From a virus (taxonomy: Duplodnaviria; Caudoviricetes): 64,000 nucleotides of DNA. This document shows positions 2,990 to 60,959 of this stretch, in pieces. A program made the position numbers and the translations under genes. The stretch is taken from positions 18,197 through 82,196 of IMG/VR virus record IMGVR_UViG_3300033073_001109. The stretch is one strand, 5' to 3'. Every line of letters starts with the position of its first letter. The first letter of the stretch is position 1. The notes beneath the pieces are model-generated. The model had not been told where the DNA came from, made no database searches, and saw nothing but the letters and a program-made list of their open reading frames with translations.

Positions 2990-3631
2990 ATGGCAGTTTC
3001 ATCATTACAACGCATGACAGTGCCTTTGGCAAGTGATCAAAGTTCACCTACCCAAGGCCTATTAATGCCCAAACTCAAATATCGCTTTAGAGTGATGTTT
3101 GAAAACTTTGGCGTGTCTACTCCAAGAACAGAACTTACTAAGCAAGTTATGACTGTTACACGCCCTAACTTATCATTTGAAGAAATTCCAATTCCAATTT
3201 ATAATTCAACATTGAAACTGGCTGGACGTCATTCATGGGCAGACATTAGTTGTTCACTGCGTGACGATGCCAGTGGTACAATTTCTAAATTGGTCGGCGA
3301 GCAAATTCAGAAACAAATGGACTTCATGGAAATGAGTTCTGCCGCATCAGGTATTGATTACAAATTTAAGACTGTGATTGAAATCCTTGACGGCGGAAAC
3401 GGAGCCAACACACCTGTGGTTCTTGAGCAGTGGGAACTGTATGGGTGCTATCTTAAGAGCTCAGATTACGGCGATTTAAACTACGGTTCAAATGAACCAG
3501 TTACAATTAGCATGGCTATTGCTTATGACAATGCTAACCAGAACCCAACAGCCAGCGGTAACCCAGCCGGTGTTGGTATTGCAGTTGGCAGAACACTGGG
3601 TGATGTTGTAACGGGCGTTGGCCCAGTCTAA
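2990..3631 (+). CDS. gp19: Tail tube protein (T4 gp19-like)
   Basis: Follows the sheath; motifs KLKYRFRV, VTRPNL, LAGRHSW, WELYGCY, LNYG, IAYDNA; strong RBS. Confidence 0.85.
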   Translation: MAVSSLQRMTVPLASDQSSPTQGLLMPKLKYRFRVMFENFGVSTPRTELTKQVMTVTRPNLSFEEIPIPIYNSTLKLAGRHSWADISCSLRDDASGTISKLVGEQIQKQMDFMEMSSAASGIDYKFKTVIEILDGGNGANTPVVLEQWELYGCYLKSSDYGDLNYGSNEPVTISMAIAYDNANQNPTASGNPAGVGIAVGRTLGDVVTGVGPV

Positions 3632-3643
3632 TAGGAGCCGCCA

Positions 3644-4849
3644 ATGAACGGTGGTGGACCATTTGGTCAACAACTTCTCCAAGGCTTTTTTGGAGTAGAG
3701 AACTTGCGTGATTACACTCACGCAAGTAAAACTTTTACTACTAACAGTTACGAACTCAAGCCGCGCTTTAAATTTCTCTTTCATGTTTCGTTTACCTTAA
3801 ACGTTCAACAGATCCCTGCCTTGCGTGGCGCAATTAGCAACGATGAAATTGCACTTTACAGTTATCTGGTAAAAACAGTTGACCTGCCAAAGTACAATAT
3901 TGCCAACGAAGTTTTAAATCAGTACAATCGCAAAAGACTTGTACAAACTAGAATTGATTACGATCCAATCAACATAACATTCCACGACGACGGCGGAGAC
4001 AACAGCCGTAACATGTGGTACAACTATTTCAAATACTACTACAAAGATCCGAGTCAGAAATATCTATCAGGGTCAGAAAATACCAATGGAACCATTGGCA
4101 AACTAGCCAACTATCAAAACGGATTTAGTTATAACAACCGTGACATTTACGAAGCTCAGAGAGTTGGCAATGTCAATGACTGGGGATATGTAGGAGAAGC
4201 CTACAACGATGGCACACAAGAGGCGTCAGGTAAGCCTCCGTTTTTTAGAGACATTAGAATCACTGGCATGGATCAACACAAGTTTGCTCAGTATGTGTTG
4301 GTAAACCCAATCATTACCAACTGGAGTCATGACGTCTATGATTATACTCAAGGCGGCGGCACAATGACTAACTCTATGCAGATACGCTACGAAACAGTGA
4401 AGTATTTCAGTGGCGCATTGAGTGGTGCCAAACCAGACGTTAATGTACAAGGATTTGCTGATCCTGCACACTATGATACTAAAAAGAGCCCGCTGGCAAG
4501 ACCAGGCAGCACTGCTACTATATTTGGTCAAGGTGGGTTGTTGGATACTGCTGAAGGCATCATGGAAGATCTTGAATCAGGATCTGTGTTGGGAGTAATT
4601 GGTGCAATACAAAAAGCCGGCACAGCATACAATACTTTCAAAGGTAAAAACTTGGCCAGTATTCTCAAGAGCGAAGCAACTGCTCTGGGTAAAAACATAT
4701 TGGTTGGAAGTTTACCTGGTGCTGTCAAAGCAGTGGCCGGTACTGCCGATGGTGTGTTTTTCCCAAGACAAAATGCTGAACGAGTTTGGCAACGTCAAAA
4801 TGAAGCCATGAACCAAGACGTGCCACCTGGCGGATACATTTCTTACTAA
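3644..4849 (+). CDS. Tail-tube-like / baseplate-tube junction protein
   Basis: VKTVDLPKY, NQYNRKR, YDPINITFHDD and LVNPIITNWSHD resemble the gp19/gp54 fold; tail-module context; AGGAG RBS. Confidence 0.6.
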   Translation: MNGGGPFGQQLLQGFFGVENLRDYTHASKTFTTNSYELKPRFKFLFHVSFTLNVQQIPALRGAISNDEIALYSYLVKTVDLPKYNIANEVLNQYNRKRLVQTRIDYDPINITFHDDGGDNSRNMWYNYFKYYYKDPSQKYLSGSENTNGTIGKLANYQNGFSYNNRDIYEAQRVGNVNDWGYVGEAYNDGTQEASGKPPFFRDIRITGMDQHKFAQYVLVNPIITNWSHDVYDYTQGGGTMTNSMQIRYETVKYFSGALSGAKPDVNVQGFADPAHYDTKKSPLARPGSTATIFGQGGLLDTAEGIMEDLESGSVLGVIGAIQKAGTAYNTFKGKNLASILKSEATALGKNILVGSLPGAVKAVAGTADGVFFPRQNAERVWQRQNEAMNQDVPPGGYISY

Positions 4850-6788: not shown

Positions 6789-8801
6789 ATGACATTTTTC
6801 TACGACTTAAACAAAAAATTAGCCAGCATTGGCAAGCCCACAGAACAACTCAATGAGCGCAGAATGCGTGAAGGATCTATCCAGGGTGGTGTATGGACTG
6901 CTGATCCTCCCAAGCCTGGTCAACCAAATGTTCCTGTGCCTCAGAATCCTGACGGCGGCAGTATTAAATCAACTTATACTCCTCCTGCACCAGGTAGTGC
7001 AATCAAGGTAACACCAGAGCCAAAATCACTTGCACCGGCCCCAAAATCACTTGCACCGGCCCCAACACCAACCAAAGAAGAGTTAGTTGGCGGCCAGAAA
7101 AAATTAGACAAGAATGCCAATGGCAAACTTGATGCTCAAGACTTTGCTATGTTGCGTAAAAGTAAAAAACAAACTTCCGAAGGCGATTTTGGTCCCATGG
7201 AAGGATCAACCGGTGACTACTCAGCCAAGAAGGCACGTGCCGGCAAAGACATCGGAAAGCCAGGCAAAGAGTTTTCTCAAATTGCTGACAAGGCCGGTAA
7301 AAAATATGGCAGCAAAGAAGCCGGCGAGCGAGTTGCTGGTGCTGTGTTAGCAAAATTGCGTGCCAAAGAAAGTGTTGCTGAAGCCGATATGGACGAATCA
7401 GCATTGCAGGCCTACCTTGGCAAGAAGAAATATGGTGCTGACGGCATGAAGGCATTACAAAAAGCCGGTCGTGACGGTGCTAGCAAAGAAACCATGGCCA
7501 AGATTCGTGCTAAACACGAAGTAGACGAAGGCTGGGATGACATGCTCAAAGACGTTGAGCGTCGTCGTTCTGGCATGAAGACTGGCGAAAAAGTTCAAGG
7601 CCACAAAGGCGAAATTGAAAAAACAGCCACAGGCATCAAGCACACTCGCAAGTACGATCCTAAGACAGGCGAAACTGATTCAGGAGATGACGATGCACCC
7701 AAAGGTGAAAAGCGTCGTGGACGTCCAAAAGGCACAGGCAAAGCCATGGGTGCCAAAGGTCCCAGCGGCAAGTCAAAACTCATGAAGAAAGAAGGTTTTG
7801 ACATTACCACTCCTAGTGGTACTTTCAGTACTAACACAGGTACAATGACACCTCCGCCTATGCCAGAAAGCAAAGGCGATGACGTCAAGGCTGCTATGAC
7901 TCTGCTTAAGAAGGCTGGTTACAAAGTGACCAAGGCTGATGCCAAAGAGCCTGTGGAAGAAAAAGCAGTGAGCAAAGCACAACAAAAGTTCATGGGCATG
8001 GTACATGCTACACAAAAAGGCGAAAAAGCCCCTTCAAAAGAAGTTGCTAAAGTTGCCAAGTCTATGAAGAAATCTGACGCAGAAGATTTTGCTGCTACCA
8101 AACACAAAGGTCTGCCTGAAAAGAAAAAGAAGAAAACTGAAGAAGCCGGTGGTGTAGATACACCCACAGCAAGCAGCGGATTCTCATTTGGCAAAGGCAT
8201 TTACGATTCGATCAATCGCGAACTAGAAGAAATGATTGCTGAATCTATGAACATTTCTATGAACAGCAATTCCGATGGTGCCAATGGTCCTACCAAAAGT
8301 TTGACAGTCACAGCCACAGACGAAGATGCAGCATACTTGGCTCAGATTCTCAAGTCAGCCGGCTTAGGTGGCGGCAGTCACGGAGATTGCGGCTGCGGCG
8401 ATTCTCCTTGCTCATGTGGTTCAGATGCCGAACATGTAGACGAGAACAAGCCAGATTGGCCAACCAACACTGAATACAGCGATGATGCACTACAGTATTC
8501 AGGCGGATTGAACAAGCCTAAAACTGACGTTGCTGGCGATGGCCAAACCACTGTGCCAGTGGCTGCTGTTCACACACAAGACGAAGATGAGTTGCGTAGA
8601 CTGCGTGAAATGGCCGGTATTGCCGAAACTAAAAAAGTCGATGAAGATGACATGGAAGAAGGCAACAAGTTCACTGGCAATCTAGCCAAAGCTCGTGCTG
8701 CTGGCAAGAAAGAAGCCGACCTAGACGGCGATGGCGATATGGAAAAAGTCAAGGAAAGCATCCTTGATATGAAACATCTCTGGACAGAATACAAGGGTTA
8801 A
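6789..8801 (+). CDS. Large Lys/Glu-rich modular putative head protein
   Basis: 670 aa of short basic modules separated by hydrophobic-x-E-(G/S/A) sites. Confidence 0.7.
   Translation: MTFFYDLNKKLASIGKPTEQLNERRMREGSIQGGVWTADPPKPGQPNVPVPQNPDGGSIKSTYTPPAPGSAIKVTPEPKSLAPAPKSLAPAPTPTKEELVGGQKKLDKNANGKLDAQDFAMLRKSKKQTSEGDFGPMEGSTGDYSAKKARAGKDIGKPGKEFSQIADKAGKKYGSKEAGERVAGAVLAKLRAKESVAEADMDESALQAYLGKKKYGADGMKALQKAGRDGASKETMAKIRAKHEVDEGWDDMLKDVERRRSGMKTGEKVQGHKGEIEKTATGIKHTRKYDPKTGETDSGDDDAPKGEKRRGRPKGTGKAMGAKGPSGKSKLMKKEGFDITTPSGTFSTNTGTMTPPPMPESKGDDVKAAMTLLKKAGYKVTKADAKEPVEEKAVSKAQQKFMGMVHATQKGEKAPSKEVAKVAKSMKKSDAEDFAATKHKGLPEKKKKKTEEAGGVDTPTASSGFSFGKGIYDSINRELEEMIAESMNISMNSNSDGANGPTKSLTVTATDEDAAYLAQILKSAGLGGGSHGDCGCGDSPCSCGSDAEHVDENKPDWPTNTEYSDDALQYSGGLNKPKTDVAGDGQTTVPVAAVHTQDEDELRRLREMAGIAETKKVDEDDMEEGNKFTGNLAKARAAGKKEADLDGDGDMEKVKESILDMKHLWTEYKG
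7020..7061 (+). repeat. Perfect 21-bp tandem duplication
   Basis: CCAAAATCACTTGCACCGGCC x2, encoding PKSLAPA x2. Confidence 0.95.
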
Positions 8802-8803
8802 TC

Positions 8804-9499
8804 ATGAAAAGTCTGCGTGAATACATTACAGAAGCCGAACAAATATTTGATACACCTCAAGTGGGTGATAACTTTGCAATCAGTTGCAGAGAAGAATGTT
8901 TGTTAGAAACCTATGTGTGCGACCAAACTGAAGACGGTATTGTGCTTCACGCCGACGACAAGATTATGCGTGCTTTGGAGGCCTATGGATATCTCAGCGA
9001 AGAAGAACTCAGTCCATTGAGTCTTGAAGAAAACTTTGATGATGTGGCTTCACAAGATGCTGGTGAATATGACTACGAAGGCGATTCGGTCAAAGATGAT
9101 TTAGAAACTGTGATTCGTGCTGCTCGCAGACTCACAGGAATGTTGCGTGACAATGACAATGTACCTGAGTGGGTGCAGTCTAAGGTAACCAAAGCCGCAG
9201 ACTATGTTGACACAGCGGCTGATTATCTTGAATCAAATCAAGACGAAGAACACATGGATGAAGCCAAGTATCAAGGACGTGAAGTTCCGCTGGGCAAGCC
9301 CATGAAAGGTGATGTTAAAAAATCTAAGGTTTATGTGCGTGGGCCCAAGGGCAATGTGGTCAAAGTTAACTTTGGTCAAAAAGGCATGAAGATTAAAAAG
9401 AATATTCCTGGCCGCCGCAAAAACTTCCGTGCTAGACACAACTGCGACAATCCAGGTCCACGTTGGAAAGCACGTTATTGGAGCTGCCGCGCTTGGTAA
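8804..9499 (+). CDS. Putative head protein with basic C-terminal domain
   Basis: Starts MKSLREYITE-A; acidic N-half; C-terminus KVNFG...RRKNFRARHNC...KARYWSCRAW is a domain type I recognise from T4-like phage hypotheticals. Confidence 0.7.
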   Translation: MKSLREYITEAEQIFDTPQVGDNFAISCREECLLETYVCDQTEDGIVLHADDKIMRALEAYGYLSEEELSPLSLEENFDDVASQDAGEYDYEGDSVKDDLETVIRAARRLTGMLRDNDNVPEWVQSKVTKAADYVDTAADYLESNQDEEHMDEAKYQGREVPLGKPMKGDVKKSKVYVRGPKGNVVKVNFGQKGMKIKKNIPGRRKNFRARHNCDNPGPRWKARYWSCRAW

Positions 9500-9508
9500 G
9501 GAACCACT

Positions 9509-9685
9509 ATGAGCTATCAACCATATAACCCAAATACTCCTCTCACCACTCCTCCGGTGCAGAATCCACATTCGCCTGCTACAGGTGGATATAAACAACA
9601 ACCAGTTGAAATTCCTGGCGTAATTAGTCAAACTAATTCTTTATACAAGCCTTACACTGGCCACCCAAACAAGGATAACAAATAA
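9509..9685 (+). CDS. Small Pro-rich protein missing from the ORF track (58 aa)
   Basis: AGGA RBS; MSYQPYNPNTP...HPNKDNK*; TAA overlaps ATG 9685; fills the gap exactly. Confidence 0.65.
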   Translation: MSYQPYNPNTPLTTPPVQNPHSPATGGYKQQPVEIPGVISQTNSLYKPYTGHPNKDNK

Positions 9686-51343: not shown

Positions 51344-51523
51344 ATGCGACACTACAAAGCCTGGGTACAGTATGTAAATGAAATTGGCCAAACTCGACAG
51401 TACGCAACCACAGTTGGTGCCGAAAATGAATTTGAAGCCGTTAATCGATTTCATGAAATATATGGTCCTGATTGTTTAATAGGGTGGATCAAAGAGGTAA
51501 AATTATATGGCCTACAGCGATAA
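51344..51523 (+). CDS. 59-aa protein (not in ORF track)
   Basis: AAGGA RBS; MRHYKAWVQY...; fills the gap before iscU. Confidence 0.55.
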   Translation: MRHYKAWVQYVNEIGQTRQYATTVGAENEFEAVNRFHEIYGPDCLIGWIKEVKLYGLQR

Positions 51524-51893
51524 AGTTATTGATCACTACGAAAACCCACGAAATGTGGGTAGCTTTGCCAAGGATGACGAAGATGTTGGAACTGGCATGG
51601 TTGGTGCGCCGGCCTGCGGCGACGTTATGAAACTTCAAATAAAGGTCAAAAATGGCATCATCGAAGACGCAAGGTTCAAAACCTACGGCTGCGGCAGTGC
51701 GATTGCCTCATCCTCTCTTGTTACCGAGTGGGTTAAAGGACGAACGCTTGACGAAGCCGCAGCTCTTAAAAATTCAGAGATTGCTGAAGAACTCGCATTG
51801 CCACCTGTCAAGATTCATTGTTCTATTCTTGCTGAAGATGCGATAAAGGCCGCTGTGGAAGATTATCGTAAAAAGCATGATCTCGCTCACTGA
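51507..51893 (+). CDS. iscU: Fe-S cluster scaffold IscU
   Basis: DHYENPRNVG, GAPACGDVM, TYGCGSAIASSS, LPPVKIHCS. Confidence 0.95.
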   Translation: MAYSDKVIDHYENPRNVGSFAKDDEDVGTGMVGAPACGDVMKLQIKVKNGIIEDARFKTYGCGSAIASSSLVTEWVKGRTLDEAAALKNSEIAEELALPPVKIHCSILAEDAIKAAVEDYRKKHDLAH

Positions 51894-52197
51894 TGCAGCC
51901 GCAAAGAAAATAACCCAAACACTACAACGCAGAGGTCGCGGAGTAGGAGTTCGCATTGGTGTTAAAACTACTGGTTGCTCTGGGCTTGCTTATGTGTTAG
52001 AATACGTAGATCAACCGCGAGCCGAGGATCAATGTTTGGATTGTTCTGGTTGTCAAATTTACGTTGATCCAAAAAGTTGTCCTTATTTGCAAGGTATGAC
52101 CATAGACTTTGTGCGTAATGGTTTAAATGAAGGCTTTGAATTTCGCAATCCCAATGAACGTGACCGTTGTGGTTGCGGAGAAAGTTTTAGAGTTTAA
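51877..52197 (+). CDS. iscA: A-type Fe-S carrier IscA
   Basis: TTGCSGLAY, NPNE, CGCGESF. Confidence 0.93.
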   Translation: MISLTDAAAKKITQTLQRRGRGVGVRIGVKTTGCSGLAYVLEYVDQPRAEDQCLDCSGCQIYVDPKSCPYLQGMTIDFVRNGLNEGFEFRNPNERDRCGCGESFRV

Positions 52198-52936: not shown

Positions 52937-54655
52937 GTGGCAATAGTACAAATATCACGCATTACTGCTCGCAAAGGGCTACAACAAGATTTACCCCAAC
53001 CTCTAGCCGGTGCAGAACTGGGCTGGAGCATAGACGAACGTAGACTGTTCATTGGCAACGGCACCACCGAAGAAGGTGCTCCTGCGCTGGGCAACACCGA
53101 AGTTCTCACAGAATATTCAGACATTCTTTCCTACGCCACACAATACACCTACCAAGGTGCAGCCGCAGGCTATGTGGTGCAGACTGGTGCCAGTTTAAAT
53201 TCTCCTGTAACACAGAGTTTACAAAATCGTCTTGACAGTTTTTGTGTTATCACTGATTTTGGTGCTGTAGGCGATGGTTCCACAGACTGTACCGAAGCCA
53301 TCAATCGTGCGTTGTATCAAATATACTGTCGAGAAGTAAACCCGCAGATACGCAGAGGTATTTTCTTCCCTGCTGGTGTTTACAAAGTCAGTGGCACACT
53401 GTTGATTCCTCCTTATGCTATGCTCTACGGCGAAGGTGGCGACAGCACTGTAATTGAGTTCGATGTACAACCTTGGACCAGTTTAACATACTGGCCTTAT
53501 GGAGTATTGGTATCCAACAGCGGCTCATACTATCGCAGTATCAACAACGGCGGAGCTCCTATTGGTACTGCTATTGGCAATGCAACTTATTGGCAGCTAG
53601 AAACACTACCGGCCTATGTGGCAAGAACCACTGACAGTTTGCAACAAACTGGAGTGAGCATCGGTGTCAACGGTGCTATTCCTCCGCAGGATATTGAAAT
53701 TGATAGCATGGGTTTTGCCACTACACAAATTCAAACTGGTGTATTGATTGATCGTGCTGTTAGAGTAACATTGCGCAATGTTCCCATAACAGGCCCGCTG
53801 ACTACCGCGGATCTAACCACCGATGTAGATGACACAAGAGCCGTGGACTTTGACAGCTCGGCCAGTTATGTAGGTTCACAGATTGTGTTTGATGCCTGTG
53901 CCTTTTCAGGATTTACCTGGGCAGTAAATTCACAAGAAGAACTGCGAGCCATCAGTTTCAACGCCTGTGAATATGACACATTGTACCAAGGCATATATCT
54001 TGGTGGTGCCAGCCCAGTCAACGGTGGACCCACTGGTGTGTGCATCTCACAAGGCTGCTTTGACAACATCTATGAACAAGGCATTGTGATTGACAGCGTG
54101 AGTCTAAACACCAGCACCAACAATGTGTTCTACGACGTAGGCAACCACTTCAATGGTGAGAGCTATCCGGCAACATCAATAATCTCTATCAACCAAGAAA
54201 ACAATGTTTCCATTGGAGACATGTTTGAACGCACAGCAACCAATGCTGCCATTTATCCTAGAATTGATCTACATTTATCTGCTAGCTATGCAATGACTAA
54301 CTCAGAAAAAATTGAGTTTGGCACTTATACTAGAGAAGTAGGTCAAACTGTGACCTTGGTAAACAACACCGCTAATCAAACGGTCTGCACCATTGACGCT
54401 ACTGCTGTGAGAGCAGTGCAAATTAATTACACAGTGACCAGAGATACCACAACTCGCACTGGCGTAATAACCTTGGTTGCTAGTACTGATGGTACAGGCG
54501 GAGACCTGTTGTCCAACGACAACGGATTTCAAAATGCCAGCACAGGCGTAACATTTTCGGCCAGCGAAACATCTAGCATAATTACTTTGAAAGCCAGCAC
54601 CACAAACACTGGTGTAGATGGTTTAATTAACTATTCGATCACACACTTAGCCTAA
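52937..54655 (+). CDS. Tailspike-like protein (Mtd-N-like head plus pectate-lyase-like beta-helix)
   Basis: TAAATA at 52908; GAELGWSIDERRLFIGNG; DFGAVGDGSTDCTEAINRAL; IFFPAGVYKV. Confidence 0.7.
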   Translation: MAIVQISRITARKGLQQDLPQPLAGAELGWSIDERRLFIGNGTTEEGAPALGNTEVLTEYSDILSYATQYTYQGAAAGYVVQTGASLNSPVTQSLQNRLDSFCVITDFGAVGDGSTDCTEAINRALYQIYCREVNPQIRRGIFFPAGVYKVSGTLLIPPYAMLYGEGGDSTVIEFDVQPWTSLTYWPYGVLVSNSGSYYRSINNGGAPIGTAIGNATYWQLETLPAYVARTTDSLQQTGVSIGVNGAIPPQDIEIDSMGFATTQIQTGVLIDRAVRVTLRNVPITGPLTTADLTTDVDDTRAVDFDSSASYVGSQIVFDACAFSGFTWAVNSQEELRAISFNACEYDTLYQGIYLGGASPVNGGPTGVCISQGCFDNIYEQGIVIDSVSLNTSTNNVFYDVGNHFNGESYPATSIISINQENNVSIGDMFERTATNAAIYPRIDLHLSASYAMTNSEKIEFGTYTREVGQTVTLVNNTANQTVCTIDATAVRAVQINYTVTRDTTTRTGVITLVASTDGTGGDLLSNDNGFQNASTGVTFSASETSSIITLKASTTNTGVDGLINYSITHLA

Positions 54656-55082: not shown

Positions 55083-57404
55083 ATGAAACAAATCACTGTA
55101 GTCAAGCGCGATGGCACACGCGAGCCATTAGCATTGGAAAAATGGCAAGCCCAAATCGCCAAAGTATGCACAGGCATTGCTGATGTGAGTCAGTCAATGA
55201 TAGAAATCAGAACACAATTACATTTTTACGATGGGATAACCACCAAAGAAATAGATGGCATTACTTTGCGTGCCATTGTGGATCTGATTGATGTAGAATC
55301 AAATCCAGATGTAGGTCACACAAATTATCAATATGTAGCAGGCAAGCAACGTCTGAGTATGTTGAGAAAAGATGTCTACGGTGACTATCAGCCCCCGCAT
55401 TTATATGAAATAGTCAAAAAGAACGTGACAGTGGGATTGTATACACCAGAACTTCTTGAGTGGTATTCAGAAGAAGACTGGAACCGTATGAATGACATGC
55501 TGGATCACAGCAAAGACGAACAATACAGTTATGCTGCCATTGAGCAGTTGATTGAAAAATATCTTGTTCGTAATCGTTCCACCAAAGAGATCTATGAAAC
55601 TCCGCAGGTTCGATACATGATTGCCGCTGCCACGGTGTTCCACAGTGAGGAACCCAACACGGCTCGCATGCGTTATATAAAGGAATACTACAATGCGGCA
55701 AGCGACGGCCTATTTACTCTTGCTACTCCAGTGCTGGCTGGTCTGGGAACACCCACAAAGCAATTCAGTAGTTGTGTCCTTATCCGTAGTGATGACGATC
55801 TTGATAGTATTTTTGCTTCGGGGGAAATGATGGCCAAGTATGCTAGCAAACGTGCTGGCATTGGTTTAGAGATTGGAAGACTACGCCCATTAGGTAGCCC
55901 TATACGCGGTGGTGAGATCATGCACACTGGCATGATACCTTTCCTTAAGAAATGGTTTGGCGACCTACGTTCATGTTCACAAGGAGGTATCCGTAATGCA
56001 AGTGCCACTGTTTTTTATCCCATCTGGCATCATCAATTCGATGATCTTATTGTGCTCAAGAACAATCAAGGAACCGAAGAAACCCGTGTCCGACACATGG
56101 ACTATGGGGTGGTGCTTTCTGCTTTTTTCTGGCGTAGATTTAAAAACAAACAAGCGATCACGTTCTTTGACCCTAACGAGGTACCGGATCTCTACGAAGC
56201 CTTCTACCGGGACACTGCTCTTTTTGAAGATCTCTATGTCAGGTATGAAGCACGATCTGATCTCCGGAAGAAGACTATGTCTGCAGAAGAAGTATTCAAA
56301 TCTGGTATACTTAAGGAGCGAACAGACACTGGGCGTATCTATCTAGTGTTCATTGACAATGTGATGAACCAAGGTCCGTTTGACCCTGAGTATCACACCA
56401 TTTACCAGAGTAACCTTTGCTGTGAAATCCTCCTTCCTACAAAACCTTTCAAGCGACTTGATGATGACACGGGTCGAATCGCCCTATGCACCCTTGGGTC
56501 AATCAACTGGGGTGCCTTTAGAAATCCTGAAGACATGCGCCGCGCTTGTAGAATTCTTCAGCGTTCGTTGTGTAATATCCTTGACTACCAAGACTTCCTC
56601 TCGATCCAATCGCAGTTATCGAATGACGAAATTCAGCCGCTTGGTATCGGCATCACTAACCTTGCTTACTGGCATGCCAAACGCGGACTGCAATACGGTG
56701 ACAAGGACGCTCTTTCCGAGGTTAAGTCGTGGATGGAACACCAAGCCTACTACCTCACAGAAGCGACGGTTGAACTTGCCAAAGAGCGAGGCCGTTGCAA
56801 AGATAGTGACCGCACCTGGTATGGTCGTGGTGTCTTTCCTTGGGAACGACGTGCCGCCGGGGTCAACGAACTCGTGGACTTTACGCCTGAACTAAACTGG
56901 GAAGGACTGCGAGCAGAAATGCGAGCCTATGGTGTGCGTAATGCTACACTGATGGCCATTGCTCCTGTAGAGTCAAGTTCAGTTGTGATTAACTCGACCA
57001 ACGGCATTGAAATGCCTATGAGCTTGATTACAGTGAAAGAATCCAAAGCAGGTAGCCTTACACAAGTTGTGCCTGAGTATCACAAACTCAAGAACAAGTA
57101 TCAACTAATGTGGGCACAGAAGGACTGTGATGGTTATTTGAAAACAGCGGCAGTGCTGGCAGCCTATGTAGATCAATCAATCAGCACCAACACATTCTAC
57201 AATCCAGCGCACTTTGCAGATCGCAAAGTGCCAACCACACTGATTGCTCGCAACCTCATGCTGGCCCATCACTGGGGTCTCAAAACATTCTACTACAGTC
57301 TTATCAACAAACAAGGCGCTAAAGCCAAAGACGAAGACTTAATCGATCTGCCTCACAATATTGAAATTATTGAAGAGGAAGATTGTGAAGCATGTAAACT
57401 TTAA
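55083..57404 (+). CDS. nrdA: Class Ia ribonucleotide reductase alpha subunit with ATP cone
   Basis: [36 protein letters not shown]. Confidence 0.96.
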
Positions 57405-57412
57405 GGAATACA

Positions 57413-58621
57413 ATGAAAAAACGTAATTATACATCAGAAACAGTTCGTCGCCTCCAAGGTTCGGTTCAAGTTGAACATACATTGGCCAAACTAGGCGCCG
57501 CAAATCTAAGAATGCTTTTGGCCAATGAACCCTACATCAATACACTAGGTGCCTATAACGGTCAGATGGCTGTACAACATGCCAAGGCCGGACTCAAGGC
57601 AATCTATTTGAGTGGGTGGCAAGTGGCTGCTGCCAACAACACAGCATTACAAACATATCCGGATCAAAGTCTTTATCCTGTGAACTCTGTTCCACAGGTC
57701 GTGCGCGGGATCAACAATGCTTTCCGTCGCGCTGATCAAATTGAACATGCTGAGGGCAAAGTAACCACAGATTACTTCCTGCCAATTGTTGCTGATGCGG
57801 AAGCAGGCTTCGGCGGTGCGTTAAACGCATATGAACTCATGATGGCTATGATCGAAGCAGGAGCTGCTGGTGTACATTTTGAAGATCAATTGTCGAGCGA
57901 AAAGAAATGTGGTCATTTAGGTGGTAAGGTTCTTATCCCTACTAGCCAGGCTATTCGCAATCTACAGGCCGCTCGTCTAGCCGCCGACGTAGCAGGTGTT
58001 GATACAGTTATCATGGCTCGTACTGACGCCGAGTCCGCCACGCTAATCACCTCAGACCATGATCCATTAGACCGGGATTTTATTATCAATGAACGCACTG
58101 AAGAAGGTTTTTACAAATTTAAAAATGGCCTTGATGCATGTATTAGCCGAGGTCTTGCTTATGCCCCTTACGCTGATCTCCTTTGGTTCGAAACTTCAAC
58201 GCCAGACATTGCACAAGCTAGAAAGTTTGCAGACGCCATCCATGCTCATTACCCTGATCAAATGCTGGCCTATAATTGCAGTCCTAGTTTTAATTGGCGT
58301 AAGTTTTTGAGCGAGGACGAATGCGAAACATTCCAGCGTGAACTGGGTGAACTGGGTTATAAATTTCAGTTTATTACACTAGCGGGTTTCCACTCAGTTA
58401 ACCTAGCAACCTTTGAGTTGGCCGAAGCATACCGTCAACGTGGCATGGCTGGATATTCAGAAATGCAACAACGTGAGTTTGAGGCGCAAGAACGTGGCTT
58501 TACCACAGTTCGTCATCAGCGTGAAGTAGGTGTTGGTTACTTTGATTTGATCTCAGAGGCGGTGGGTGCTACATCAACTGTGGCAAATAAAACATCTACT
58601 GAAGCGGACCAGTTTCATTGA
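57413..58621 (+). CDS. aceA: Isocitrate lyase
   Basis: [59 protein letters not shown]. Confidence 0.95.
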
Positions 58622-58809
58622 ACTCGCTGGAACGAATCTGGGCCAGAGCCACTGGCCATTTAATGGGCAATACCGACGAAGATCGTCCAGATGTACCCAT
58701 TCTTACTTTGCGTGAAGCTCGAATAGCCTTGTGGCTCAAGACATTCTGGGTTATAATACATGTGATAACCTGTTGCTTCATTATAGCAAATACAATAAGA
58801 CACTGGTAA
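58618..58809 (+). CDS. Small membrane protein
   Basis: C-terminal hydrophobic helix; overlap with the aceA stop. Confidence 0.6.
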
Positions 58810-58813
58810 TACT

Positions 58814-59923
58814 ATGAGCAAACAACAATACGATTTAAAAATAAAAACAGATTATCTGCAACGCAAGATGTTCTTGGATCCAGCCGGTCCTGTTACCATT
58901 CAACGATTTGAAGAAGTTAAGTACAACAAGATTGTTAAATTTGAACAAGAGGCTCGTGGATTCTTTTGGGTACCAGAAGAAATTAGCTTGACCAAAGATG
59001 CACAGGATTTTAAAGAAGCATCAGACACTGTAAAGCATATCTTTACTTCAAACCTACTGCGCCAAACTGCTTTGGACAGTCTGCAAGGTCGCGGCCCAAG
59101 TCAGATCTTCACACCTGTGGTTTCAATTCCTGAACTAGAAGCTTTGGTGTACAACTGGACATTTTTTGAGACCAATATTCACAGTCGTTCATACAGTCAT
59201 ATCATTCGTAACATTTACAATGTGCCCAAAGATGTGTTTAACACTATTCATGACACAGAAGAAATAGTGGCCATGGCATCCAGCGTAGGCAAGTACTACG
59301 ATGACTTGCATCTGTTTAATTGTATCAAAGAAACAGACAGCGACCCGAATAATTCGCCCGAAGAAGGACACATACGAGCAATCTGGATGGCACTGAACGC
59401 CAGTTATGCACTGGAAGCCTTCCGCTTCATGGTTAGTTTTGCAACCAGTCTGGCCATGGTTGAAAACAAAATTTTCATCGGCAATGGAAACATTATTAGC
59501 TTGATTCTGCAAGATGAGATCTTGCACAAAGAGTGGACTGCTTGGTTGATCAATCAAGTGGTAAAAGAAGATCCACGCTTTGCCAAAGTTAAACAAGAGT
59601 GTGAGGCAGAAGTCTATGCTATGTACATGGATGTTATCAATGAAGAAAAAGCCTGGGCTGATTATTTGTTCAAGTATGGTCCAGTGATTGGACTCAATGC
59701 GCAAATCCTCAAAGACTTTGTGGACTTTACAGCAGCCGGTGCTCTCAAAGAAATTGGTATCAAATACAATCATCCAGCACCAAAGAGCACGCCGATTCCG
59801 TGGTTTAACAAACACGTAGATGTCAGCAAGAAACAAACTGCATTGCAAGAAAATGAATCAACTAATTATGTTATTGGTGTCATGAGTGATGCCATTGACT
59901 ACGAAGAGTTGCCAGATCTATGA
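58814..59923 (+). CDS. nrdB: Class Ia ribonucleotide reductase beta subunit
   Basis: FFWVPEE, LDSLQGR, ETNIHSRSY (radical Tyr), LEAFRF, DEILH. Confidence 0.96.
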   Translation: MSKQQYDLKIKTDYLQRKMFLDPAGPVTIQRFEEVKYNKIVKFEQEARGFFWVPEEISLTKDAQDFKEASDTVKHIFTSNLLRQTALDSLQGRGPSQIFTPVVSIPELEALVYNWTFFETNIHSRSYSHIIRNIYNVPKDVFNTIHDTEEIVAMASSVGKYYDDLHLFNCIKETDSDPNNSPEEGHIRAIWMALNASYALEAFRFMVSFATSLAMVENKIFIGNGNIISLILQDEILHKEWTAWLINQVVKEDPRFAKVKQECEAEVYAMYMDVINEEKAWADYLFKYGPVIGLNAQILKDFVDFTAAGALKEIGIKYNHPAPKSTPIPWFNKHVDVSKKQTALQENESTNYVIGVMSDAIDYEELPDL

Positions 59924-60668: not shown

Positions 60669-60959
60669 ATGCCAGGGGTTCAGCGTGATGGGGATTCAAA
60701 CACCGGGGGCGGTGCAGCACAAGGCGGAGTAGGCTCTGTGCGTGTCAACGGTCGTCCTATCATGATTCCTGGGCAAAGCGTAACCCCACACCCACCTTAT
60801 CCTCGACGAGGACGCAACGAACACAACAATGGCAGTCAGCAGACTGCTGGCGGTGTTGGCAGTGTTCGTGCCAGCGGCAGTCCTGTGGTAGTTGATGGTA
60901 ACAGTGATACCTGTGGTCATGCTAGAACCGGCGGCAGCGGAGATGTGAGAGCAGGATAA
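60669..60959 (+). CDS. PAAR-like spike tip protein (gp5.4-like)
   Basis: RDGD, SVRVNGRP, DTCGH, GSGDVRAG. Confidence 0.8.
   Translation: MPGVQRDGDSNTGGGAAQGGVGSVRVNGRPIMIPGQSVTPHPPYPRRGRNEHNNGSQQTAGGVGSVRASGSPVVVDGNSDTCGHARTGGSGDVRAG

Follow-up and report, generated by a model that had tools for sequence, protein, structure and literature searches.

Here we report an isocitrate lyase (ICL) gene from a virus of the Caudoviricetes, located in a window of 64,000 nucleotides that comprises bases 18197-82196 of the 82,196-bp IMG/VR contig IMGVR_UViG_3300033073_001109 (CheckV completeness 24%). The gene lies on the plus strand at 57413-58621 and encodes a phage-type short form of 402 amino acids, placed between nrdA and nrdB, the genes of the large and small subunits of a class I ribonucleotide reductase (RNR). 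Judged by its sequence and its predicted structure, the protein almost certainly has isocitrate lyase activity, and the genome that carries it is that of a freshwater jumbo myovirus of about 340 kb. We consider it probable that the gene is a working accessory metabolic gene of this phage, whose product splits host isocitrate and leaves the glyoxylate to the host.

The identification as ICL is specific. The protein passed the NCBIfam equivalog model NF011645 'isocitrate lyase' with 684.9 bits (cut-off 562), as well as TIGR01346 (539.4 bits, cut-off 275.9) and Pfam PF00463 (E 1.1e-100, 338 bits, cut-off 26), and solved ICLs in the PDB were matched at E 1e-153 to 1e-173. The models of the methylisocitrate lyase PrpB (TIGR02317/NF008455) stayed under their cut-offs, with 112.2 bits vs 354.4 and 93 vs 353. 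Residues were mapped by alignment to Mycobacterium tuberculosis ICL1 (5dql, native numbering) and Escherichia coli AceA (1igw), using for ICL1 a list of Mg2+ and substrate ligands drawn in part from structure 1F8I. Y65/S67/G68/W69 of the phage protein correspond to Y89/S91/G92/W93 of ICL1, D84 to D108, D128/E130 to D153/E155, H155/E157 to H180/E182, R203 to R228, E260 to E285, N288/S290/S292 to N313/S315/S317 and T322 to T347. The catalytic loop K164-K165-C166-G167-H168 (codons at 57902-57916, plus strand) equals residues 189-193 of ICL1, in which Cys191 is the general acid, and the FITLAGFH motif, F320 to H327 including T322, is encoded at 58370-58393 on the same strand. All 22 active-site positions checked are invariant among 81 phage copies, 80 cellular ICLs and the ICL of phage C48C1, and the KKCGH loop with its general-acid cysteine is kept in each of the 81 phage copies. 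An earlier note on this DNA, which pointed to the KKCGH and FITLAGFH motifs, had called the enzyme catalytically complete, and the alignment bears this out for the full active-site set. D108, E182, C191 and R228 are confirmed active-site residues of M. tuberculosis ICL1, whose activity is abolished by D108A and by C191S (PMC7609661).

The AlphaFold2 (AF2) model of the protein has a mean predicted local distance difference test score (pLDDT) of 85.1, with low confidence restricted to residues 81-87 and the mobile catalytic loop 162-170, and predicts a TIM barrel together with the C-terminal helices and lid known from solved ICLs. Compared by Foldseek, it superposes on the Chloroflexus aurantiacus enzyme (6LRP) with a template modelling (TM) score of 0.91 and a root-mean-square deviation of 1.9 Å, and on the M. 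tuberculosis, E. coli, Brucella and Bacillus ICLs with TM scores of 0.90-0.93. Bacterial short-form ICLs (6LRP; Bacillus cereus 7CMX; M. tuberculosis 1F61/5DQL; E. coli 1IGW) are about 60-67% identical to it over the whole barrel, and share with it the KKCGH loop, the Mg2+ and substrate ligands, the C-terminal lid and a score above the ICL equivalog cut-off. Unlike them, the protein is encoded by a phage, has neither aceB nor aceK beside it, begins later and carries clade-fixed substitutions. What is missing is the N-terminus of about 21-27 residues, a non-catalytic segment typical of cellular short-form ICLs. The alignment pairs residue 4 of the phage protein with residue 25 in E. coli AceA (1igw) and with residue 28 in M. 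tuberculosis ICL1 (5dql), and its start corresponds to residues 22 and 25 of the two, which gives a shortening of about 21-24 residues; the figure first noted against the E. coli enzyme was about 20. An in-frame TAA at 57395-57397, 18 nt before the ATG, excludes a longer frame, so the short N-terminus is genuine. The fixed changes W33R, D74A, L104F, W121Y and others fall at sites that are invariant in the 80 cellular ICLs.

The enzyme belongs to a lineage found in viruses only. At least 142 contigs in IMG/VR encode a phage-type copy, the best 80 being at least 87% identical to the protein described here, and the best 120 clusters from a search of 5.8 billion proteins are all at least 91% identical. 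The best cellular match, among bacterial and archaeal genomes sampled at one per species (185,579 species), reaches 66-67% identity. In a mixture-model maximum-likelihood tree, which was unrooted, drew on a biased cellular sample and had a bootstrap that had not fully settled, the phage copies form a single clade (support 100/98) to which the ICL of phage C48C1 is sister on a long branch (100/99), and this pair adjoins the ICLs of Micrococcales and Nocardioidaceae (split support 99/97). The protein begins at the same residue in all 80 phage copies and in C48C1, and the phage copies and C48C1 share Q15, R33, F104 and V374 in place of the R, W, L and T of cellular ICLs; the common start and these four residues argue for one old phage-type ICL. 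The expectation that a phylogeny would lead to a donor, and through it to the host, was not borne out, as the gene sits in an old virus-only clade at no more than 67% identity to any cellular ICL.

Phage C48C1 (OQ984149, Kyanoviridae, 156 kb) holds the sole ICL in a true phage record among 50,697 phage records, the other matches being bacterial-genome records or unannotated fragments. Its protein WJE87928 is 63.5% identical to the one described here and is annotated only as 'hypothetical', and nothing relevant was found in the literature on this phage. Both genomes have an IscU gene; that of C48C1 is 79% identical and lies 3 kb upstream of its ICL. The ICL of C48C1, unlike the present one, is not adjacent to nrd genes, and its branch of 1.2 substitutions per site makes its placement less secure. 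A near-identity DNA search of the 50,697 records with the nrdA-ICL-nrdB stretch gave no match, and BFVD, a library of UniProt viral protein structures, contained no ICL-like fold (best TM <0.4). With C48C1 as the only record, no such fold in BFVD and many metagenomic contigs, phage ICL is rare among deposited phage genomes and common in metagenomic jumbo phages. The earlier note had judged the gene rare for a bacteriophage, a view not supported by the IMG/VR contigs, well over 100 protein clusters and the phage ICLs in the literature.

Selection was assessed on 26 loci that contain all three genes, nrdA, ICL and nrdB. The median ratio of nonsynonymous to synonymous substitution rates (dN/dS) was 0.047 for ICL, 0.040 for nrdA and 0.072 for nrdB, and the median proportion of nonsynonymous differences (pN) was 0.081, 0.130 and 0.150, respectively. 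Synonymous sites of the ICL are near saturation (proportion of synonymous differences, pS, 0.70), which together with the low dN/dS shows that the high protein identity reflects constraint and not recent spread. These values indicate that the ICL is under strong purifying selection, that is, in use by the phages. A cellular-type gene with phage flanks, a dN/dS of 0.047 and a recurrent arrangement has the marks of a phage auxiliary metabolic gene (AMG).

The window encodes tail sheath, tail tube, large terminase (TerL), virion proteins and helicases. TerL is closest to those of the jumbo myoviruses PA5oct (54%), Phosso, Atu_ph07 and CBB/GAP32, and relatives with the same ICL measure 338 kb (97% complete) and 374 kb (100% complete). 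At least half of the nrdA-ICL-nrdB stretch is contained in 15 freshwater or lagoon sequencing runs from at least seven studies. The structural genes, TerL, the two large relatives and the freshwater runs identify the source as a freshwater jumbo phage with a genome of about 340 kb. Its host may be Gram-negative, as three points hint: the nearest TerL relatives are phages of Pseudomonadota; an IscU and an ErpA-type gene occur between nrdA and nrdB in relatives, with the same IscU and an IscA-like gene in the window; and one relative has an autotransporter beta-domain gene. This last gene lies between ICL and nrdB at 7575-9656 of locus L008 (a 184-kb relative); its product of 694 aa, a protein of outer-membrane type, matches the autotransporter beta-domain family PF03797 at E 6.6e-18.

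The surroundings of the gene are compact. nrdA (55083-57404, plus strand; ATP-cone, all-alpha and barrel domains by domain search) ends in a TAA at 57402-57404, which leaves 8 nt before the ICL ATG at 57413, and an AAGGA Shine-Dalgarno-like motif at 57403-57407 (plus strand) overlaps this stop codon and stands 5 nt before the ATG. Most of the gap to nrdB (58814-59923, plus strand, by domain search) is taken up by orf63, a frame of 63 codons at 58618-58809 on the plus strand whose TTG start overlaps the ICL stop (TTGA). Read from the coordinates, the placement of the ICL given in the earlier note, 8 nt after nrdA, behind an AAGGA motif and flanked by the two reductase genes, is correct; the frame ahead of nrdB had been omitted there. 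orf63 had no Pfam or other family match. Its product ends in a hydrophobic stretch. Many relatives have it at 79-94% identity, often as the sole open reading frame (ORF) between nrdA and nrdB, and it is probably a real small gene.

How firmly the ICL is tied to this position was seen from two samples, one of 80 loci chosen by ICL and one of relatives chosen by nrdA alone (87-96% identity), the latter being unbiased with regard to ICL. About 44 of the 80 ICL-selected loci have the order nrdA-ICL-nrdB, with 0-4.6 kb of additional genes; four have nrdA-nrdB-ICL, one further locus has ICL downstream of nrdB, and about 31 are without an nrd gene within 6 kb. Among 71 nrdA-selected loci with both nrd genes, ICL is present in the slot in 7, just after nrdB in 1, and absent from the locus in 63; the nrdA-nrdB gap in this sample ranges from a 1-nt overlap to 3,185 bp. 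The 338-kb relative has an nrdA 88% identical to the one here, yet its ICL lies about 23 kb off on the opposite strand, and an unknown ORF of 198 aa separates its nrdA and nrdB. The 374-kb relative shares only 48% identity in nrdA but 92% in ICL, the latter standing among genes for GTP cyclohydrolase I, PTPS/QueD, radical-SAM and phosphoribosyltransferase proteins. Cargo in the slot of relatives also includes orf63 by itself, the IscU and IscA/ErpA genes together, a DadA-like FAD dehydrogenase, methyltransferases, a GNAT-like protein, the autotransporter-domain protein and a class IV aminotransferase.

The ICL is, on these observations, an accessory gene that is patchy and mobile between genome positions and phage lineages, and its place between nrdA and nrdB is a hypervariable cargo site and not a dedicated partnership with the reductase. 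The variable position of ICL and the unrelated cargo weaken a functional tie to dNTP synthesis. Of the earlier proposal of an AMG co-expressed with dNTP synthesis, the AMG and a probable co-transcription remain, and the functional tie is weakened by a position that is not conserved (7 of 71). Homing endonucleases of the mobE type insert between nrdA and nrdB of T4-like phages. The same intergenic insertion point is used in the jumbo-phage group, where the cargo consists instead of metabolic and miscellaneous genes; a domain search found no endonuclease domain beside the ICL within the window.

The Fe-S assembly genes IscU (51507-51893, 128 aa) and IscA/ErpA-like (51877-52197, 106 aa), both on the plus strand, lie 3 kb ahead of nrdA in the window and form a conserved part of the nrd neighbourhood. 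Across the phage group IscU shows 78-92% identity, and in some relatives IscU/IscA stand inside the nrdA-nrdB slot, adjoining ICL.

Several of the loci compared hold further genes around ICL or within nrdA. The DadA-like FAD-dependent D-amino-acid dehydrogenase (NF009074, 464.8 bits, cut-off 494) occupies the slot of three relatives (L034:7206-8378, L183:2335-3513 and L193:3258-4436), once directly after ICL and twice in loci that have no ICL. In one relative a class IV aminotransferase of the branched-chain / D-amino-acid / ADC-lyase family follows ICL (L012:2101-2970). The ICL cluster of the 374-kb relative (L019:1-9000) also includes a DegT-type aminotransferase and resembles a 7-deazaguanine-type modification module, and in the 338-kb relative a fatty-acid-desaturase-like gene (L168:12704-13402; PF00487, E 1.2e-12) begins at the ICL stop codon. 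In locus L073 nrdA is interrupted by 867 bp (3080-3946) with a 235-aa ORF that has no Pfam match; an intron, an intein or a split gene may account for this, all of them situations known from other T4-like phages.

Neither the window, as the earlier note had observed, nor the whole 82,196-bp contig and five ICL-bearing relatives, among them two near-complete genomes (97% and 100%), contains a malate synthase (PF01274), and the positive controls of this search worked. AceK (PF06315), aconitase and serine hydroxymethyltransferase (SHMT) were likewise not found in the contig and four ICL-bearing relatives, including two near-complete ones. Lacking malate synthase and AceK, the phage does not carry a complete glyoxylate shunt module. 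A weak match to a 2-hydroxyacid dehydrogenase, considered as a partner, turned out to be a UDP-glucose dehydrogenase, and the class IV aminotransferase and the DadA-like dehydrogenase were rejected as general partners, since each adjoins ICL in only 1 of the 80 loci. No gene consistently accompanies ICL across the contexts compared.

In the infected cell, the phage ICL would split host isocitrate into succinate and glyoxylate while the reductase genes are expressed, and carbon would be diverted from the two CO2-releasing steps of the tricarboxylic acid (TCA) cycle. As the phage has no malate synthase, completion of the shunt or disposal of the glyoxylate would depend on the host, either on its malate synthase, which we assume, or on another sink. 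The direction of flux and the host partner are inferred, as are co-transcription and any benefit to the phage. A precedent for such a benefit is Pseudoalteromonas infected by phage HP1, in which no TCA-cycle genes of the host were more strongly induced than aceA and aceB (PMC7082346).

nrdA, ICL, orf63 and nrdB are probably co-transcribed, as the 8-nt spacing, the overlapping start of orf63 and junctions free of terminator-like sites suggest a single transcript. The window has a single copy of the T4 late motif TATAAATA, which lies far from the ICL locus. Three runs labelled 'RNA-Seq?', probably DNA, gave contigs that cover mostly conserved parts of nrdA and 82-226 nt of ICL and are uninformative on expression; none of the listed runs holding nrdA-ICL-nrdB is recorded as RNA.

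Four points weigh against a working accessory ICL that feeds glyoxylate to the host. ICL is absent from the whole length of two contigs of close relatives, rated 72% and 75% complete, so any benefit would be conditional. The loss of the N-terminus, together with W33R, D74A, L104F and W121Y, could change how the enzyme is regulated or assembled, or its specificity. Flux through ICL in the forward direction would lower the NADPH obtained from isocitrate dehydrogenase and offers no obvious help to an operon centred on the reductase. Finally, promoter- and terminator-like sites are no more frequent than in shuffled sequence, so that the case for co-transcription is one of gene spacing.

Other explanations were weighed against the same data. 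That the locus is an artefact or a passenger, either a bacterial-phage chimeric assembly or a recently captured host gene without a role in the phage, is very improbable. Contigs from an independent public run (X1) span both junctions (55976-58180 and 58279-59221), and the gene order recurs in dozens of independent contigs and in runs of the seven or more studies. With a GC content of 46.1%, a third-position GC content (GC3) of 36.8% and a codon usage correlated at r = 0.76 with the other genes, the ICL falls within or close to the range of the phage genes measured, and there is no compositional break at the locus. A chimeric contig, the danger raised in the earlier note, is contradicted by the recurrent order, the bridged junctions and the continuous composition; recent capture from a host is rejected, as far as sequence data go, on composition, saturation of synonymous sites and the 67% identity ceiling, and a dN/dS of about 0.05 does not fit a gene without a role. 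A second possibility concerns the reaction. M. tuberculosis ICL1 is bifunctional, acting as ICL and as methylisocitrate lyase, and the ICL reaction is reversible. Cleavage of methylisocitrate might be the main activity of the shortened phage enzyme, or the enzyme might work in the reverse direction, joining glyoxylate and succinate into isocitrate for an NADPH-producing isocitrate dehydrogenase, with glycolate-derived glyoxylate, plentiful in lakes, as substrate. The fixed W33R, D74A, L104F and W121Y and the missing N-terminal segment would suit a changed activity; the scores of 93-112 bits against methylisocitrate lyase equivalog cut-offs of about 353, the ICL equivalog being passed, and substrate-contacting residues all identical to those of true ICLs speak against it, and we regard a different reaction as quite improbable.

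Two further readings, each of which we hold to be unlikely to a similar degree, accept the ICL reaction and place the benefit elsewhere. One is precursor supply, in which glyoxylate would be converted by host aminotransferases to glycine for purine rings and one-carbon units, and succinate or C4 acids to aspartate and pyrimidines. It would explain the tendency of ICL to sit among genes of nucleotide metabolism: its neighbours are nrdA and nrdB in the present window and at about 44 loci, and in the 374-kb relative they are GTP cyclohydrolase I, PTPS/QueD, a radical-SAM protein and a phosphoribosyltransferase; in single relatives the class IV aminotransferase (L012) or the DadA-like dehydrogenase (L034) directly follows ICL. 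However, each of these two enzymes is found beside ICL in a single locus out of 80 and the dehydrogenase also occupies the slot without ICL; SHMT was missing from five ICL-bearing contigs, the ICL neighbours in the 338-kb relative are an unknown protein and a fatty-acid-desaturase-like protein, and no consistent partner gene was found. The other is a stress, iron-sparing or redox bypass, iron limitation and oxidative stress being conditions that induce the glyoxylate shunt. By short-circuiting the NADH-generating half of the TCA cycle, the ICL could limit respiratory reactive oxygen species (ROS) and the iron demand of respiratory complexes, and would thereby protect iron-dependent phage enzymes (RNR, radical-SAM) in hosts of nutrient-poor lakes. 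IscU and IscA/ErpA genes share the neighbourhood (51507-52197), stand beside ICL in the slot of six relatives (L007, L062, L063, L068, L081 and L207), and in C48C1 lie 3 kb from ICL; moreover, induction of the glyoxylate shunt in a virocell has been linked with a phage Fe-S/glutaredoxin gene (PMC7082346). IscU/IscA, however, accompany nrdA-nrdB with or without ICL, so their co-location may be incidental. More broadly, and again with little probability in our estimate, the shortened virus-only ICL could be a stand-alone phage tool that serves a purpose other than the classical glyoxylate shunt. This idea draws on a short form common to jumbo myoviruses and a Kyanoviridae-type phage and on a constraint at the protein level tighter than that of nrdA and nrdB. 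If it were true, the purpose might be glycine and purine supply, an iron- and ROS-sparing bypass with IscU/IscA, or reverse flux for NADPH, and the lost N-terminus with W33R could release the ICL from host regulation.

The accessory ICL proposed here has counterparts in the literature, as phage ICLs were reported in 2013, 2017 and 2025 (PMC4053976; PMC5332604; bioRxiv 10.1101/2025.02.27.640493). According to the passages of these reports that treat ICL, the gene was seen in phages of Pacific viromes (PMC4053976), in an aceBA operon of a 179-kb marine viral genome (PMC5332604), and as 98 ICL genes in 98 huge phages, in which malate synthase was confined to marine, soil and plant-related phages and did not occur in freshwater ones (bioRxiv 10.1101/2025.02.27.640493). 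In these passages, as here, phage-encoded ICL is proposed as an auxiliary metabolic gene. The freshwater phage described here, without malate synthase, fits the pattern of the huge phages, and in contrast to the aceBA operon of the marine genome its ICL stands alone. The ICL and glyoxylate passages of the earlier phage-ICL reports contain no mention of N-terminal shortening, a virus-only clade, the strength of selection or the nrdA-nrdB slot. The present gene is a further, well-documented example of phage metabolic genes of a known class and sharpens the description of that class, in that freshwater jumbo-phage ICL is an old, virus-specific, shortened and mobile lineage under purifying selection and without malate synthase. 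It is a good candidate for testing what one enzyme of the glyoxylate shunt does for a phage. In this jumbo-phage group the nrdA-nrdB junction is a general landing site for cargo, and the position of a gene there is therefore no proof of a functional link.

Some minor features were recorded elsewhere in the window, in which no tRNAs were found. Downstream of nrdB, a 96-aa ORF on the plus strand (60669-60959) has a weak PAAR-motif match (E 0.0014, below the cut-off) and is directly followed by a 681-aa ORF without a family match. Within the run of replication and nucleotide genes, positions 52937-54655 (plus strand) encode a 572-aa protein with a pectate-lyase-like beta-helix domain (PF12708), which may be a depolymerase or tail-spike-like protein.

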